Virus record (IMG/VR): IMGVR_UViG_3300035326_000449
Location: 4,280-68,279 of that record
DNA from: a virus
DNA: 64,000 bases
Direction: 5' to 3' (one strand)
Shown: in pieces, positions 3,219 through 19,346 of the stretch
Numbering within the stretch: the stretch's first letter is position 1
Layout of the letters: each line of letters begins with the position of its first letter
Notes under the pieces: generated by a model
What the model was told of the DNA's origin: nothing
Database searches by the model: none
What the model saw: the letters and a program-made list of their open reading frames with translations, nothing else
Program-made: the position numbers and the translations under genes

Positions 3219-4510
3219 ACGCTTTCAGGTGTTATTTGGAACAATTCCTTGAATCTCTCGACGAGGTCAAGTTTCTCCCATGTGTAGTATTCCACATTCT
3301 TCTTCTTCACGCCATCGTAACCGATGTATGACTCACGCATATAAGACTTGCCGAAGTGTCCGTAAGCGGCGGTGTCCTCATATATGGGATTGAGAAGTTT
3401 GAGTCGCTTGATGATGCCGGCCGGAGTCAGGTCAACCTCACGGGAAATGAGGTCGGCTATCTCCCCATCGCTCATGTCAATATGAGATTTGCCGTAAGTA
3501 TTAACATTGACGCTTACTGGTTCTGCTACACCGATTGCATAAGCAAGCTGCACAAGAACTTCATCTGCGACACCGGCAGCTACGAGGTTCTTGGCGATGT
3601 GTCGGGCGGCGTAGGCTGCTGAACGGTCAACCTTGCTGGGGTCTTTACCCGAGAATGCACCGCCTCCATGTGCGCCACGACCACCGTATGTATCAATTAT
3701 GATCTTACGACCGGTGAGACCTGTGTCACCATGAGGACCGCCTATTACGAATTTACCGGTTGGATTGACATGGAGAATGAGGTCATCATCAAACAAGGTA
3801 CGGAGTTCCTTCGGAAGCAGACGGATAGCAGCCGGGATAACGATGCTCTCGATGTCATGGCGAATATGAATCTGCATATTTCTTTCCTGGTCCTCGATCC
3901 TCATGCCCGAGTCGGCAAAGAAGTCGTCATGCTGGGTTGATACCACGATGGTATGAACCCTCACCGGTTTACCTTCGGGAGTGTACTCAACTGTAACCTG
4001 GCTCTTGGCATCGGGGCGAAGATATGGCATGATCGGCTCATCGCTCCATAAGTAACTGCGAAGCTGCAGAAGAATGAGGTTTGCAAGATAGAGCGGAAGC
4101 GGCATGAACTCCGGAGTTTCGTTCACGGCGTAGCCGAACATCATACCCTGATCCCCGGCTCCCTGGACCTCCTGCTCAACTCCGCGCTGAATATCCTCGC
4201 TCTGGCAATGCATGGCATTCATGATGCCGCAGGAATCACCGTCAAACCCATATTCGCTCTTAGTGTAGCCAATATCCTTGATGACGTTTCTCGCGATTTT
4301 CTGAACATCCACAGTCGCTTTTGAGCGGTATTCCCCGGCTATTATCACTTGCCCTGTAGTCACCAGGGTCTCACATGCCACTTTTGCATTCGGATCTTTG
4401 GCGATGAACGCATCGACAATAGCATCCGAAATCTGATCGGCAATCTTATCAGGGTGCCCTTCGGACACTGCTTCTGATGTAAAAAGTATGTTATGCTTAG
4501 TTGGCTTCAT
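3215..4510 (-). CDS. metK: S-adenosylmethionine synthetase
   Basis: FTSEAVSEGHPDKIADQISD, GAGDQG, GGPHGDTGLTGRKII and GGGAFSGKDPSKVDRS all intact. Confidence 0.97.
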   Translation of the reverse strand: MKPTKHNILFTSEAVSEGHPDKIADQISDAIVDAFIAKDPNAKVACETLVTTGQVIIAGEYRSKATVDVQKIARNVIKDIGYTKSEYGFDGDSCGIMNAMHCQSEDIQRGVEQEVQGAGDQGMMFGYAVNETPEFMPLPLYLANLILLQLRSYLWSDEPIMPYLRPDAKSQVTVEYTPEGKPVRVHTIVVSTQHDDFFADSGMRIEDQERNMQIHIRHDIESIVIPAAIRLLPKELRTLFDDDLILHVNPTGKFVIGGPHGDTGLTGRKIIIDTYGGRGAHGGGAFSGKDPSKVDRSAAYAARHIAKNLVAAGVADEVLVQLAYAIGVAEPVSVNVNTYGKSHIDMSDGEIADLISREVDLTPAGIIKRLKLLNPIYEDTAAYGHFGKSYMRESYIGYDGVKKKNVEYYTWEKLDLVERFKELFQITPESV

Positions 4511-15437: not shown

Positions 15438-15842
15438 TTATTTGAGCATTGTGATTACGGTAGTGGCGATTCCTTTGGCGGTCGTGCGCCATGACTGATA
15501 TTCCGACCATTCATTGACATATTCCTCGCGCTTGTCTTCTTCGACAGAGCTTCGGGTGTCTTTCGCGTCAATGAAGTTTGCGGAGAGAGCCTGAACGTCA
15601 TCCGCAGAGTATCTGTCATTGACAATTGCCGAAACTATCGAGCCATAGGTGATGGGCGCGGGCACATCAACGTTATAGCACTCGCATAAATCTTCCGGCT
15701 GTGACGGGGATTCCTCTGAGCCGTCCGTGATTTGAGGATCTGGAGCTTTCATGATGTCGAAGAAAATTCTGAGGACTGCGCCCTCCTGACGTATGATGAT
15801 GCCGCTTTCGGGAATCACCGGGATTTGTTCTAATGTCTTCAT
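15438..15842 (-). CDS. Hypothetical protein downstream of the DGR RT
   Basis: 134-aa ORF between RT and fibre gene. Confidence 0.65.
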   Translation of the reverse strand: MKTLEQIPVIPESGIIIRQEGAVLRIFFDIMKAPDPQITDGSEESPSQPEDLCECYNVDVPAPITYGSIVSAIVNDRYSADDVQALSANFIDAKDTRSSVEEDKREEYVNEWSEYQSWRTTAKGIATTVITMLK

Positions 15843-15862
15843 TTCTTTTTCTTGTTTTGGGA

Positions 15863-16444
15863 TTATTCAAATATGTAATCTGTAATTCCGTCTCCGATGT
15901 CTCGCTTTTTGAGCTTTGTCTGAATCGGAAGCGCGTTCATTGTTTTTGCCTGGTCGAGCTGGGACTTCAGGGTGAAAGAGTTCGTGATGAACTTCGCTTC
16001 CTGATTCTCGAAGACTATCTTGACGGCATAGCGTCCACCGCCATTGCGAGTCTTCACGTCCGGCTCGAAATCTAAGACTGTTATAGGGACGTTCAGAATC
16101 TCCATTGCCCTGACTTTACGTATGTCGAAGAAACGCTGTCCGTCCTTGGTAGTGCTTCTTCCGGTTATTCCCATTTCTGAAAAACTCATGTCGTTTTTTG
16201 TTATAGTTTGCCATAAATGACGGCAGTTGCCCCATTTGCACCAGCCCCAATATGAAGCCCGTGTCTCCAGGCGGCGTTTTGCCGTTCTGATTTTCTTTTC
16301 CTTTCTTGCGAAAGACTTCTTTATTGATTTGCGCAATCTCACGTTGCCGTGAGTGAAACAGTAGCCGAGGAAGTCAATGCGTCTTCCGTCTGTTACCGCC
16401 GCGCTGACGCTTCCTTTTCTTCCTTTGTCCGGGTTCTCTTTCAT
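15863..16444 (-). CDS. DGR reverse transcriptase segment 3 (motif 7, thumb) fused to an extra ~108-aa C-terminal domain
   Basis: IDFLGY, VRLRKSIK, SYWGWCKWGNC, followed by MSFSEMGI...DYIFE. Confidence 0.85.
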   Translation of the reverse strand: MKENPDKGRKGSVSAAVTDGRRIDFLGYCFTHGNVRLRKSIKKSFARKEKKIRTAKRRLETRASYWGWCKWGNCRHLWQTITKNDMSFSEMGITGRSTTKDGQRFFDIRKVRAMEILNVPITVLDFEPDVKTRNGGGRYAVKIVFENQEAKFITNSFTLKSQLDQAKTMNALPIQTKLKKRDIGDGITDYIFE

Positions 16445-16703
16445 GTCCGATTGGTGAGATTACAATGTTGGATTTCACACACAGTCCGAGTTCAGATGAC
16501 TTCTCATAGAATATTCGGAGTTTCCTGCGGGCTTCGGCCTTGGTTCTTGCAAGTCCGAGCGTATCGTCACAATAACGCAAGTAGCCGTGATTCCTTCCTT
16601 TATACACTACGGCGTGGTCAATGCGCTTGCCGGACAGATTGCCTATCATCTGACTTGTGACAGCACCGATAGGCGTTCCTCTTCGTGCGTTCGGATTCTT
16701 CAT
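16374..16703 (-). CDS. DGR reverse transcriptase segment 2 (catalytic palm)
   Basis: GTPIGAVTSQ (DGR-type SQ motif) and YLRYCDD. Confidence 0.9.
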   Translation of the reverse strand: MKNPNARRGTPIGAVTSQMIGNLSGKRIDHAVVYKGRNHGYLRYCDDTLGLARTKAEARRKLRIFYEKSSELGLCVKSNIVISPIGHEREPGQRKKRKRQRGGNRRKTH

Positions 16704-17436
16704 TCAGGGTCTGTATTATGTTTTCATCGCTTGCATAGTTGAAAAGGATAATCCGTATAAGCCTTATGAAATGTCTGTCCTTGAATAGAGCGGTCATTTC
16801 TGCCTCAATCAGCTCATGTGGAATCGACTGATAGAACTTCTTGAAATCGGTCTTCCAAAACCATTTCCATTCCGGGTGTCGGCGAAGCATCTTTTTCAGA
16901 GTCCTGACACCGTAATGAAGCCCGCGCCCTTTGATGCAGGCGAATGCGCCGGGTATCAGACTGCCATAGACCTTTGGCTCGATTACACGCAGTACCGCAT
17001 GATGAAGTATGCGCCACGGATAGAAATGCTGTTTGATTATCTCCCTGACTTTGCCGGCATCGGTCTTGATTTCCTGCGATGTGTACTCGCAAGGAGGGAA
17101 GTCAAGCGTCAGAATCATGAGTTGAAGTTCACGGAGTTCCTGAAACTTTCTTTGATTGTGCCGTGTGATATAGCGGTGCGGGACATGAAACACCCTGCCG
17201 CTTTTGACAATCCGGCGTTGCGATTTCCCTTTTTGTGCCGTATCGTCGGCGGCAAGAAGATTATCCATTGTAGCTATCCGCTCAATGATGTGTCCCTCTC
17301 GTTTCGGACGTTTGCCGCCGTTAATCCTTATGGCGGACTCGTAACGTTCGATACGTGCCGACAGCAACGCGTCAATCTCTGAGCAGGAGAGTGAACGCCA
17401 GTCAATGTCTGATATGTCAGCCGTGAGATATTCCAT
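16618..17436 (-). CDS. DGR reverse transcriptase segment 1 (motifs 1-3)
   Basis: GKVREI, RILHHAV, ACIKGRGLH, KTDFKKFYQSIPH. Confidence 0.9.
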   Translation of the reverse strand: MEYLTADISDIDWRSLSCSEIDALLSARIERYESAIRINGGKRPKREGHIIERIATMDNLLAADDTAQKGKSQRRIVKSGRVFHVPHRYITRHNQRKFQELRELQLMILTLDFPPCEYTSQEIKTDAGKVREIIKQHFYPWRILHHAVLRVIEPKVYGSLIPGAFACIKGRGLHYGVRTLKKMLRRHPEWKWFWKTDFKKFYQSIPHELIEAEMTALFKDRHFIRLIRIILFNYASDENIIQTLNEESERTKRNAYRCCHKSDDRQSVRQAH

Positions 17437-17743
17437 GTCTATACGTGTATCGTCATTCTGAAAGAAGTGTCGTGTTTGCCAAACTCATGTCTTTTTCAGA
17501 CCTATATAAAAAGATTCCACATAGGCAAGCGGACGCTTGCTTGGAATCCCTGCCCGGAGCTTTCGAGAGTCAACCTACTTGCCCCGCTTGTCTGCCCGCA
17601 AGAGACAGACCTTTCCGCTTACGAGATTTTTTGACTTCACGGAACTGTGTCTAAGTTCCGTTACGCTGCACAGTCGAATCGAGTTAGATGCAGGGTCAGG
17701 GTTCGGGGAACGGTTTTCAGGATTTCTCCTGTATGTCAAGTTT

Positions 17744-17851
17744 GGCGAGAGCCGTAATTCGCGTTCGCATTCGAGAAAGCGTTCCTCGAGTTCGCGATGC
17801 CGAGACCGCAATACGAGCCGTTATTCGCATTGCCGCCCCAAAGCACAAGCT
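17744..17851 (-). repeat. DGR template repeat (TR)
   Basis: 108-bp copy of the VR; AAC/AAT-rich (reads LVLWGGNANNGSYCGLGIANSRNAFSNANANYGSR). Confidence 0.95.
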
Positions 17852-17999: not shown

Positions 18000-19346
18000 T
18001 TATGCGGCCGCAACGAGCTGTTTGCCGGACATGAACGTGAGCGGGCCGTAATAAGCAAGGCGAGAGCCGAAAGCCGCGTTCGCATACGAGAAAGCGGACC
18101 TCGAGAGCGCGAGGCCGAGACCGCAATACGAGCCGTAAGTCGCACTGCCGCCCCAAAGCACAAGCTGGCCTGTGTTGTTGATATACTCATAGTCACCCCA
18201 ATAGGATGTCGCGCCGCCTCCGATTGCAGAGCCGAATATGTCGAAGTATTCGCCAATAATCATCTTTGAGATATACCCCTCTGAATTAGCCGTAACGGCT
18301 CTTCGGGCGAGCTGACGGTATTTGCCATTGGGGTGGGTGGAAAGTTCAGCCGCTGTCGGCATACGGTTGCCTTCATAGATGAATATTTCCTGACCGGTCT
18401 GAGCTGAATTTTCGGAGTTTCCGCAGTATACTCCCTGAATCATCTCATATTGCCATCCGTAGGGGTCTTCGATTCCGAACAGATTCACACGTGATGAATT
18501 TGTCGTGTGTATGGTGCTGTCGGATGTGTTAACGAGATTTGCGATACTGATTTTGGCGAGAGCGTCACCGAGACTTTTTGTTGCGCCGGTCAGCAATTTT
18601 GAAGCTGCGCTCCACACGTCCTTCCAACCGCCCTCGCCGCCGACACCATTGCCGAGCTGTGTCTGAATGTTCGGGTTTCCGTAGTGTCCGAGTCCGAGCA
18701 TCATCATATAACGGCGATGGTCGTAGTTGGTGAGACCCCAATCTTTGCCGTTCACCTGAGCCGCAGTCCAGAACTGTTCTATCGTTTTGGCACCTGTCGG
18801 GGTGACACCCGAACGAGATACGAGCGTGCTTCCTGACATACTTCCCTTGTATGCCGCGATGCAGATGTATTCATCGTTATGGCAGTCGCCGATATAGTGT
18901 CCGCCGATGGGGAGCTGCGAGAGCCAGAGATAATCTACACCGCTTGCCGCGTCCTGCTTTATTACATAATAGAGACGCGGGCCGATGAACATGACATTCC
19001 CTTTTGATTCATCGAGAGTCGTGCCGTCCGCATATATCGCGGAATTGGTCGGGGACAGCTTTGCCGCGAGTCCCTTGGGGGTAACAAGATAGCGTCCGCA
19101 CATGGACTCATATTCGGCTCTCATACCGGTGTTGCCGATAACACCCCATGCCTGGCTGGTCTGATTCTGTTTGAGTGGCACACCCCATGCGACCTGACGC
19201 AGAAGCATCTCGTCGCCGGTATTGATGACATTCATGAGGTTGTCAAGTGTGATGCGGCGTACAGAGCCGTTGATTTCCATAAACACACAGTTTGATTTGA
19301 GTGCGGAAGTCACAAGTGTTGCTGTTCCTAAATCTTGATTTGCCAT
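18000..19346 (-). CDS. DGR target protein, putative C-type-lectin-fold receptor-binding protein
   Basis: NLFGIEDPYGWQYE and LWGG...FGSRL flank the VR at the C-terminus; in the tail operon. Confidence 0.85.
   Translation of the reverse strand: MANQDLGTATLVTSALKSNCVFMEINGSVRRITLDNLMNVINTGDEMLLRQVAWGVPLKQNQTSQAWGVIGNTGMRAEYESMCGRYLVTPKGLAAKLSPTNSAIYADGTTLDESKGNVMFIGPRLYYVIKQDAASGVDYLWLSQLPIGGHYIGDCHNDEYICIAAYKGSMSGSTLVSRSGVTPTGAKTIEQFWTAAQVNGKDWGLTNYDHRRYMMMLGLGHYGNPNIQTQLGNGVGGEGGWKDVWSAASKLLTGATKSLGDALAKISIANLVNTSDSTIHTTNSSRVNLFGIEDPYGWQYEMIQGVYCGNSENSAQTGQEIFIYEGNRMPTAAELSTHPNGKYRQLARRAVTANSEGYISKMIIGEYFDIFGSAIGGGATSYWGDYEYINNTGQLVLWGGSATYGSYCGLGLALSRSAFSYANAAFGSRLAYYGPLTFMSGKQLVAAA
18059..18166 (-). 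repeat. DGR variable region (VR)
   Basis: 12 mismatches to the TR, all at TR adenines on the coding strand. Confidence 0.95.

Follow-up and report, generated by a model that had tools for sequence, protein, structure and literature searches.

The reverse transcriptase (RT) of a DGR carried by a gut phage is encoded in three overlapping frames, and selection maintains an internal ATG at each of the two junctions between them. Because these ATGs are maintained, we favor the reading that the RT is made as three separately initiated polypeptides that assemble into one enzyme, which on the comparison of sequences we judge to be slightly better than an even bet. The DNA analyzed is a 64,000-nucleotide stretch of a virus record (IMG/VR IMGVR_UViG_3300035326_000449, positions 4,280 to 68,279), referred to here as the window. 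DGR RTs are under development as targeted-evolution tools, DGRs are very common in gut Bacteroidales phages, and translation initiation and ribosomes in Bacteroidota differ from the E. coli model. If the RT is truly tripartite, it would reveal where an RT tolerates cuts and would be, to our knowledge, the first multi-chain enzyme of the DGR RT class; we know of no description of a three-chain RT. If it is instead the product of double recoding without a known slippery motif, it would point to a new kind of frameshift signal in Bacteroidota. In the published text available to us, the sole proposal for how this widespread RT family is made is an inferred pair of frameshifts (PMC8008677).

Layout of the RT Gene and Its DGR

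Features of the gene and its element, in window coordinates, are as follows.

17436..16618, minus strand: RT ORF1, 272 aa
16703..16374, minus strand: RT ORF2, 109 aa
16444..15863, minus strand: RT ORF3, 193 aa
16701..16703, minus strand: junction 1 ATG, in frame 2, spelled by frame-1 codons AAT-GAA
16442..16444, minus strand: junction 2 ATG, in frame 3, spelled by frame-2 codons CAT-GAA
16377..16427, minus strand: K/R-rich tail of ORF2, QRKKRKRQRGGNRRKTH
17744..17851, minus strand: template repeat (TR), 108 nt
18059..18166, minus strand: variable repeat (VR), at the 3′ end of the target gene
18000..19346, minus strand: DGR target gene, 448 aa

The start coordinates of ORF1, ORF2, and ORF3 are 0, 2, and 1 modulo 3, so each frame is +1 of the preceding one, and the ORFs overlap by 86 nt (ORF1/ORF2) and 71 nt (ORF2/ORF3), which confirms the coordinates and frames given in a first-pass annotation of the window. 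ORF1 contains the RT fingers and motifs 1–3, with the catalytic Asp within TDFKKFY, and a clade-specific helix (ENIIQTLNEESERTKR); its final 19 codons (about 16674-16621) are ORF2 read out of frame and are unconserved. ORF2 contains motif 4 (RGTPIGAVTSQ), motif 5 (YCDD), motif 6, and the K/R-rich tail, which is conserved as frame-2 protein in every split lineage and missing from in-frame relatives. ORF3 begins with an unconserved leader and continues into motif 7 (GRRIDFLGY), the thumb, and, toward the C terminus, an additional alpha/beta domain (about residues 86–193). The junction 1 ATG stands directly after a frame-2 TGA (16706-16704) and 8 codons ahead of the Gly of RGTPIG (16679-16677). 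The junction 2 ATG has a TAA five codons upstream and lies 24 codons ahead of the F of FLGY (16372-16370), and the ancestral GRRIDFLGY begins at the Gly at 16387-16385. Both of these pairings of stop and ATG had been pointed out in the first-pass annotation, as had the shared ending of ORF1 and ORF2, CGCATTGA, and all are present in the window.

The Pfam profile RVT_1 matches ORF1 over profile positions 6–107 (27.4 bits) and ORF2 over 117–186 (20.7 bits), each ORF alone falling under the cut-off of 29.6 bits. These matches place the RT in the DGR clade together with the resemblance of an in-frame relative, P0005, to the DGR RT 8ub7 (E 2e-20 by sequence). The P0005 model (pLDDT 92) superimposes on 8ub7_A with a TM of 0.89, normalized to the solved chain, and an rmsd of 2.5 Å, and both junctions fall in loops of this model. 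The element is an active DGR of a temperate gut Bacteroidales phage, of the same type as those of Quimbyvirus and LoVEphage. All 12 mismatches between the TR and VR of the window (108 nt) are at TR adenines, as are almost all TR/VR mismatches at 19 other loci. No Pfam match (E ≤ 0.01) was found for the target, two neighboring ORFs, or the ORF3 C-terminal domain, the four proteins scanned. Between the target, TR, and RT there is no ORF, hence no gene for the accessory protein Avd, and the flanking ORFs have no Pfam match.

The split itself is real. All sampled words of the window stretch (100%) are present in 14 DNA runs, and contigs from two DNA and two RNA-library runs, which are public and come from four studies, span 15700-17600 with no gaps; the sole difference among them is A>G at 16787 in one run. 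An assembly artefact is at odds with this agreement without indels. That the split marks a decaying pseudogene is countered by the recurrence of the same two junctions in all 14 clusters of the comparison set (25 sequences, with ORF1 and ORF3 identity down to about 37–40%) and by adenine-specific VRs that differ between near-identical phages. Individual copies are broken: L030 and L031 have lost YCDD by an 11-nt deletion and carry four non-adenine VR mismatches, L085 has one surplus A in ORF3, and L083 has an additional frame change in ORF1. Given the conserved layout and the TR/VR pattern, decay is as unlikely as the first-pass annotation had proposed, and we consider it or an artefact practically negligible as the explanation of the split. 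Transcriptional slippage or editing was also rejected, with junctions free of long homopolymers and RNA-library contigs identical to the DNA sequence, although such contigs are blind to rare variants and such libraries may contain DNA.

Conservation of the Junctions and Their Start Codons

The +1,+1 layout was found at 40 of 45 viral loci, the exceptions being L008, L030, L031, the 5′-cut L040, and the distant single-frame L045, and at all 22 genome loci (L082–L103). Single-protein scans of viral contigs returned no relative with ORF1, none with P0026, and, with P0012, only single-frame RTs; a longer word-index search with ORF3 gave one weak match. An incoming-frame ATG lies 5–10 codons before the motif 4 Gly at junction 1 in 24 of 25 sequences, which represent 13 of 14 clusters, L041 having TTG where the others have ATG. 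At junction 2, an incoming-frame ATG is present in all 25 sequences; it precedes FLGY by 9 codons in L042 and by 16–24 codons in the other 24. These ATGs are spelled by outgoing-frame NAT-G in which N is G, A, T, or C, encoding D, N, Y, or H, so that what is conserved is the nucleotide string and not the residue it encodes. The position of the junction 2 ATG is not homologous among clades: it falls just after PIG in the clade of the window, the LoVE and L029 clades have it 4–5 codons further on, and L042 has it a long way downstream. When codons were randomized synonymously with the outgoing protein fixed, an ATG arose with a probability of 0.3–0.85 per lineage; multiplied across clusters, these probabilities come to 5.6e-4 at junction 1 and 1.3e-3 at junction 2, a calculation that treats clusters as independent and ignores shared ancestry. 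None of 12 close in-frame relatives (picked by eye) has a Met within 12 residues ahead of the motif 4 Gly. Selection thus maintains the internal ATGs at both junctions, and each piece of the RT has a start codon of its own.

In the window, both internal ATGs have a start-like context, A-rich at −14 to −10 and G-poor upstream. They fall at the 99.3rd and 98.9th percentiles of 1044 internal ATGs and equal the start of ORF1 itself. With the same matrix, 13 of 24 junction 1 ATGs and 12 of 25 junction 2 ATGs are at or above the 95th percentile. In LoVEphage, scored with a matrix from its own 62 annotated starts, the ORF2 ATG is at the 20th and the ORF3 ATG at the 81st percentile of internal ATGs, and therefore the start-like context is not replicated there.

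The ORF1 stop falls 7–78 codons past junction 1 at no fixed place, so the ending CGCATTGA of ORF1 is peculiar to this phage, and, where it departs from synonymous shuffles at all, the overrun is on the long side (mean cluster P(sim ≤ obs) 0.70). The outgoing ORFs are untrimmed, and under a three-chain reading every ORF1 molecule would bear a junk tail. For ORF2, 19 of the 25 sequences have the stop 4 nt ahead of the F codon. This stop, at ATT-GA, is missing in 3 of 14 clusters (four sequences, L084/L092, L103, and L101) and displaced in L042 and L095, and it is no commoner than the roughly 0.4 per lineage obtained under synonymous shuffling. In L101, ORF2 continues 70 codons beyond the frame-3 Gly (about 65 beyond FLGY). 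The outgoing-frame codon that overlies the incoming Gly is AGG, CGG, TGG, GGG, or AGC depending on the active lineage. The AGC, in place of an Arg codon at junction 1, belongs to the L033/L035/L037 lineage, whose VRs still differ with every difference at a TR adenine. Outgoing-frame conservation reaches the start of the ancestral incoming motifs, with E.ER.KR running up to RG.PIG and RKRQR..R up to GR.IDFLGY. The first-pass annotation had expected aligned homologues to keep both the place and the motif of the junctions: the junction sites are kept among the 25 sequences, whereas neither CGCATTGA nor the likeness of the purine strings is conserved. Its proposal of a look-alike junction motif as the recoding signal is not supported, given the unfixed ORF1 stop and the varying codon over the Gly, and the purine strings encode the K/R-rich peptide.

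In-frame forms nest among split forms in a quick SH-aLRT tree, which indicates that a fused chain works, and P0012 and P0021 are forms split at junction 1 only. A C.WAS segment of the in-frame relatives was considered as an out-of-frame relic of motif 4 and is unsupported by the DNA of L053–L079.

Of the possibilities raised in the first-pass annotation, the comparisons and the upkeep of the internal ATGs favor three separately initiated subunits, and we think it most likely that translation initiates at these ATGs and that the resulting pieces come together as one enzyme. Chain 1 would be ORF1, with the fingers and motifs 1–3. Chain 2 would be ORF2, initiated at the ATG at 16703, with motifs 4–6 and the basic tail, and chain 3 would be ORF3, initiated at the ATG at 16444, with motif 7, the thumb, and the extra C-terminal domain. 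Motifs 3 and 5 would then contribute their catalytic aspartates from different polypeptides, with the primer grip and thumb on a third. In the proposed origin, the frame of a single-chain RT would have been broken twice by one-base changes in surface loops; an internal start codon, together with complementation between fragments, would have rescued each break, after which the upstream ORFs would have run into random tails. For this fuller account, a three-chain enzyme with that history kept across a large gut-phage DGR family, we put the chances at about even. Pairing of the pieces or binding of the template RNA might be helped by the basic tail of ORF2 and by the ORF3 leader, which overlaps that tail and is often acidic, and having to bring together three scarce pieces could be what keeps the rate of mutagenic retrohoming low. 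Standing against three chains are the untrimmed outgoing ORFs, the poor start context of the LoVEphage ATGs, the nesting of in-frame forms among split ones, and the fact that the solved and other known RTs of the DGR class are all single chains.

Frameshifting and Other Rival Explanations

Two programmed ribosomal frameshifts (+1, or equivalently −2) that fuse the frames into one RT of ~520–560 aa are the published interpretation (Benler et al. 2021, PMC8008677, in the part available to us) and, in our estimation, the main rival, possible if doubtful. At junction 1 the ribosome would change frame somewhere from the frame-2 ATG to the RG codons, and at junction 2 it would do so where the basic tract ends, immediately ahead of GRRID, perhaps stimulated there by the basic nascent peptide; the tract is found in every junction-2-split lineage and in no in-frame relative. 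Outgoing tails that are long, variable, and unselected are as expected if they are seldom translated, and the extension of outgoing-frame conservation up to the ancestral incoming-frame motifs and the nesting of single-chain relatives in the split clade are likewise in keeping with frameshifting. The 25 sequences in 14 clusters have in common neither a slippery or hungry codon nor a stop context nor a downstream RNA structure, and they lack the conserved shift-prone codon, slow A-site codon or stop, and stimulator that define a programmed +1 site. A hungry Arg codon or a −2 slip on AGAGG/CGCGG looked promising in the first 12 lineages and was dropped when L093 proved to have TGG, L101 GGG, and the active L033 group AGC. 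A +1 shift at the ORF2 stop was rejected because GR.IDFLGY is ancestral in single-chain relatives, so that such a shift would lose the ancestral GR.I, and because the stop is not universal, with a frequency per lineage within synonymous expectation. Small hairpins formed by the repeated PIG codons and by GGAAG/CUUCC were considered as downstream stimulatory RNA and are no more stable than in synonymous shuffles; for downstream folding the mean z is −0.22 and −0.80, with controls at −0.15 and −0.10. A phage-encoded suppressor tRNA to read a four-base codon was discarded as well, there being no tRNA gene in the window or the other 4.4 kb of the 68-kb provirus. The RNA-library contigs carry no inserted or deleted base, and frameshifting leaves the upkeep of the incoming-frame ATGs unexplained.

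A mixed mechanism, with a frameshift at one junction (most plausibly junction 1) and separate initiation at the other (most plausibly junction 2), seems improbable to us. At junction 1 the conserved parts of the two frames meet with no linker between them, and at junction 2 a long leader overlaps the basic tail. Ribosomes might restart at the upstream ATG after termination. The junctions do differ in the distance from ATG to motif (5–10 against 16–24 codons) and in their stops, that of ORF2 often being set 4 nt before the F codon and that of ORF1 fixed nowhere, but the ATGs are kept about equally strongly at both, and the ORF2 stop is neither universal nor commoner than under shuffling. A 61-nt translational bypass at junction 2 in the style of T4 gene 60, with take-off at the GGA of SPIG and landing at that of GRRID, would yield a canonical-length ISPIG-RRIDFLGY loop, equal in length to that of single-chain relatives such as P0005 (SPIHSNGKGRMIDFLGY). 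This GGA-to-GGA hop, suggested in the first-pass annotation, has matching take-off and landing codons in the window, but matched Gly codons occur in only about 8 of the 25 sequences (by eye), roughly a third, and the take-off place is Ala, Gln, or Leu in many lineages. No stop follows the take-off codon directly. Moreover, the supposed gap is conserved as the frame-2 K/R-rich peptide with synonymous AGA/CGN changes and is therefore translated, and we regard the bypass as highly improbable.

Comparison with Known Systems

Classical +1 frameshift sites include that of prfB, CUU-UGA-C with an upstream SD-like element, and that of Ty3. The junctions share with these sites the +1 change and, at junction 2 in many lineages, a stop within four codons and an upstream purine-rich element. 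They differ in having no re-pairing codon, a stop that is not universal, and a site codon that varies freely, and a shift at the stop would yield a protein without the ancestral GR.I. Translational bypass is known from T4 gene 60, and as there, a GGA-to-GGA hop over tens of nucleotides is possible in the window; unlike in gene 60, the matching codons are unconserved and the skipped stretch is conserved as protein.

The three-frame layout is not new, being already in print for gut phages related to this one ('Quimbyviridae'). Benler et al. (2021, PMC8008677) reported the three-frame RT of Quimbyvirus and inferred two programmed frameshifts, as the first-pass annotation had correctly stated; within the text available to us, it is the only paper that our literature search found to treat such an RT. 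The available portions of PMC8008677, PMC8525569, and PMC12629997 locate no shift site and do not discuss separate initiation. LoVEphage (PMC8525569, PMC12629997) has relatives that are cultured and inducible (PMC12629997; BI-TP1 record). The window RT resembles those of Quimbyvirus and LoVEphage in its three overlapping ORFs, each +1 of the last and broken before motif 4 and before motif 7, in the adenine-only TR/VR changes, and in belonging to a temperate phage of gut Bacteroidales. Relative to BI-TP1, of the LoVEphage species, ORF1 is 53%, ORF2 about 50%, and ORF3 54–56% identical, with 68% nucleotide identity over 38% of the gene. Unlike Quimbyvirus and LoVEphage, the window phage lies in another clade with another host range and comes from mouse-gut runs, and its junction 2 ATG and ORF1 stop are elsewhere. 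An identical RT is found in a Lepagella muris genome record (ORF1 and ORF2 100% identical). The bRT of Bordetella phage BPP-1 (PDB 8ub7 and related entries) has the same fold and motif order, judged from the model of the in-frame relative P0005, and the same adenine-specific TR-to-VR outcome. It is a single 328-aa chain that works with Avd, whereas the window gene is in three frames with no avd gene seen between target and RT, and unlike bRT the window RT carries two inserts, a helix ahead of motif 4 and a basic stretch ahead of motif 7, as well as an additional domain at the C terminus.

Layout and activity of the split gene

The first-pass annotation described the reverse transcriptase (RT) gene of a diversity-generating retroelement (DGR) in three overlapping frames, and this reading is borne out: the window holds three pieces in successive +1 frames, overlapping by 86 and 71 nt. 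Junction 1 (ORF1 to ORF2) precedes motif 4 (RGTPIG) and junction 2 (ORF2 to ORF3) precedes motif 7 (GRRIDFLGY). ORF1 alone and ORF2 alone each score under the curated Pfam RVT_1 cut-off.

Features of the DGR (window positions)
17436..16618, minus strand: ORF1, 272 aa, RVT_1 profile positions 6-107
16703..16374, minus strand: ORF2, 109 aa, RVT_1 profile positions 117-186
16444..15863, minus strand: ORF3, 193 aa, where the GRRIDFLGY part starts, plus the thumb
17744-17851: template repeat (TR), 108 nt, compared with the VR
18059-18166: variable repeat (VR), at the end of gene 18000-19346, compared with the TR

The TGA immediately 5' of ATG 16703, the TAA five codons 5' of ATG 16444 and the common ending of both upstream ORFs, CGCATTGA, were likewise found as claimed. 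As a side observation, the minus strand carries 53 of the window's 55 long ORFs.

All sampled words of the RT stretch (100%) were present in 14 DNA runs, and also in RNA-library runs, every run being labelled mouse gut or coded. A check for assembly indels found none: contigs from two DNA and two RNA-library runs of four studies span 15700-17600 without gaps, their sole difference being A>G at 16787 in one run, in a comparison whose runs may include the source sample and whose contigs hide rare variants. The VR, annotated as diversified, differs from the TR at 12 positions, all 12 at TR adenines, and adenine specificity holds for the TR/VR pairs of 20 loci. Two viral contigs, L030 and L031, carry an 11-nt deletion in ORF2 that takes out the catalytic YCDD, and they alone among the TR/VR loci compared have non-adenine VR mismatches (4), which fits the expectation after loss of RT activity. 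The window's element is real DNA and an active DGR, leaving a vanishingly small chance that the split reflects decay or artefact.

Conservation of the layout

The +1,+1 layout occurs in 40/45 viral-contig loci and at both junctions of 22/22 species-representative genome loci (L082-L103), with ORF1/ORF3 identity down to 37-40%. Loci L104-L119, at 25-35% identity, are single-frame.

Viral-contig exceptions to the +1,+1 layout
L008: A8 for A6 before the ORF3 ATG; ORF2 and ORF3 in one frame
L030, L031: 11-nt deletion of YCDD
L040: 5' end cut off
L045: distant single-frame RT

The fused frame of L008 (1300-1320) reads ..TETKKMGTKS.., leaving out the basic tail described below, and its VR lies off the contig; the fusion may be natural or stem from a sequencing error in the homopolymer. 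A Muribaculaceae genome locus, L083 (1900-1905), has a further frame change within ORF1, absent from its close relative L084. The assemblies that contain three-frame loci L093 and L103 bear the labels Anaerovoracaceae and Thermoclostridium, not Bacteroidales; the loci could lie on mis-binned phage contigs, or the host range could be wider.

Separate starts or frameshifts

We compared the junctions in 25 sequences forming 14 clusters (80% identity over 80 residues of ORF2). An ATG in the incoming (downstream) frame lies 5-10 codons 5' of the motif-4 Gly in 24/25 sequences (TTG in L041), and at junction 2 in 25/25, 16-24 codons 5' of FLGY in 24 and 9 in L042. Both ATGs arise from NAT-G in the outgoing (upstream) frame, where all four N give Asp, Asn, Tyr or His, and the junction-2 position is non-homologous between clades. 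With the outgoing protein fixed, the chance of an ATG in all clusters is 5.6e-4 at junction 1 and 1.3e-3 at junction 2, figures that take clusters as independent and so make the evidence look stronger than it is. The K/R-rich frame-2 tail RKR.R..R.K, with synonymous AGA/CGN exchanges, is present in all lineages split at junction 2 and in no in-frame relative.

Starts of the window's ORFs have ~0.6 A at -14 to -10, upstream G depletion and no Shine-Dalgarno-like signal; BI-TP1, which forms one species with the published LoVEphage, has the same pattern. On a matrix from the 55 long ORFs (A-rich at -14..-10, G-poor upstream), the ORF2 and ORF3 ATGs reach the 99.3rd and 98.9th percentiles of 1044 internal ATGs, comparable to ORF1's own start, and 13/24 junction-1 and 12/25 junction-2 ATGs of relatives reach at least the 95th. 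On a matrix from BI-TP1's 62 annotated ATG starts, its own ORF2 and ORF3 ATGs fall at the 20th and 81st, so the context argument is good in the window and many lineages but fails in LoVEphage.

The proposal that the look-alike junction motif is a recoding signal was not supported. The outgoing codon overlapping the incoming Gly is AGG, CGG, TGG, GGG or AGC at junction 1 and varies just as freely at junction 2; the AGC lineage (L033, L035, L037) is active, since its three VRs are distinct with purely adenine-specific changes. ORF1 stops at no fixed distance, 7-78 codons beyond junction 1 in the 25 sequences, so CGCATTGA at both ORF ends is accidental, its likeness originating in RID encoded twice as CGC-ATT-GAC. 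The ORF2 stop lies 4 nt 5' of the F codon in 19/25 sequences; in L042 and L095 it comes earlier, and in L103, L084, L092 and L101 it follows 17 to 194 nt later. Synonymous shuffles give this common stop at P ~0.4 per lineage. RNA folding 3' of either junction was no more stable than in synonymous shuffles, and a search across the provirus found no tRNA gene.

On balance, because the ATGs are maintained and no common shift signal was found, we favor an RT made as three separately started polypeptides, an option the first-pass annotation had offered beside recoding. The untrimmed out-of-frame tails, at times very long (ORF1 tails are not shortened against synonymous shuffles, mean cluster P 0.70), and the poor context of the LoVEphage ATGs count against it. 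These same observations, the abutting of outgoing- and incoming-frame conservation at the junctions and the single-chain nature of all known RTs speak for two frameshifts joining the frames, which we consider the main alternative, though less likely given the maintained incoming-frame ATGs and the absence of a signal common to relatives. A mixed mechanism is improbable, and bypass highly so.

Single-chain and published relatives

Scanning with ORF3 by full HMMER yielded 283 relatives. Some are in-frame RTs that share its C-terminal domain (P0005, P0008, P0015, P0026 and others), some begin at junction 1 and are fused at junction 2 (P0012, P0021), and some consist of the C-terminal domain standing alone. 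The in-frame forms carry ..RRGIPIG.. and ..GR.IDFLGY.., indicating that the incoming-frame motifs are ancestral. Their linkers at junction 1 differ and are unrelated, and at junction 2 they have short loops. A quick tree with SH-aLRT support only groups every split form with P0005, the P0008 group and both junction-1-only forms in a single clade (99%), and the in-frame forms nest at two places within the split clade, which suggests that the single chain was regained at least twice. An AlphaFold model of P0005 (pLDDT 92; TM 0.89 to the solved DGR RT 8ub7, normalised to target) places junction 1 in a predicted loop that separates an inserted helix from motif 4, and junction 2 in a predicted hairpin turn linking motif 6 to motif 7.

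The extra alpha/beta domain behind the ORF3 thumb (residues ~86-193, window 15866-16189) has no Pfam match; elsewhere it forms stand-alone proteins of ~105-115 aa or a gene of its own upstream of single-frame RTs (L109-L117). No avd was seen next to the window's DGR. The domain may be an accessory factor, fused in the window and free in other loci.

The window's ORF1 and ORF2 are 100% identical to prophage copies in a Lepagella muris genome record. That record (L085) equals the window over 1901 nt apart from a single added A in the A6 run (ACAAAAAACGA) at 16199-16205, which breaks ORF3 after ~residue 80; all four runs compared have A6 there. Either a sequencing error or variation in homopolymer length could account for the extra A.

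The earlier report that the annotation mentioned is in print: Benler et al. take the three-frame RT to suggest 'two programmed frameshifts' and show adenine-specific VR variation (PMC8008677). The available portions of the LoVEphage papers (PMC8525569, PMC12629997) do not discuss the layout. The LoVEphage and BI-TP1 records share it and match the window's ORF1 and ORF3 at 53-56% protein identity; the three-frame layout is already published, and the window contributes a mouse-gut member.
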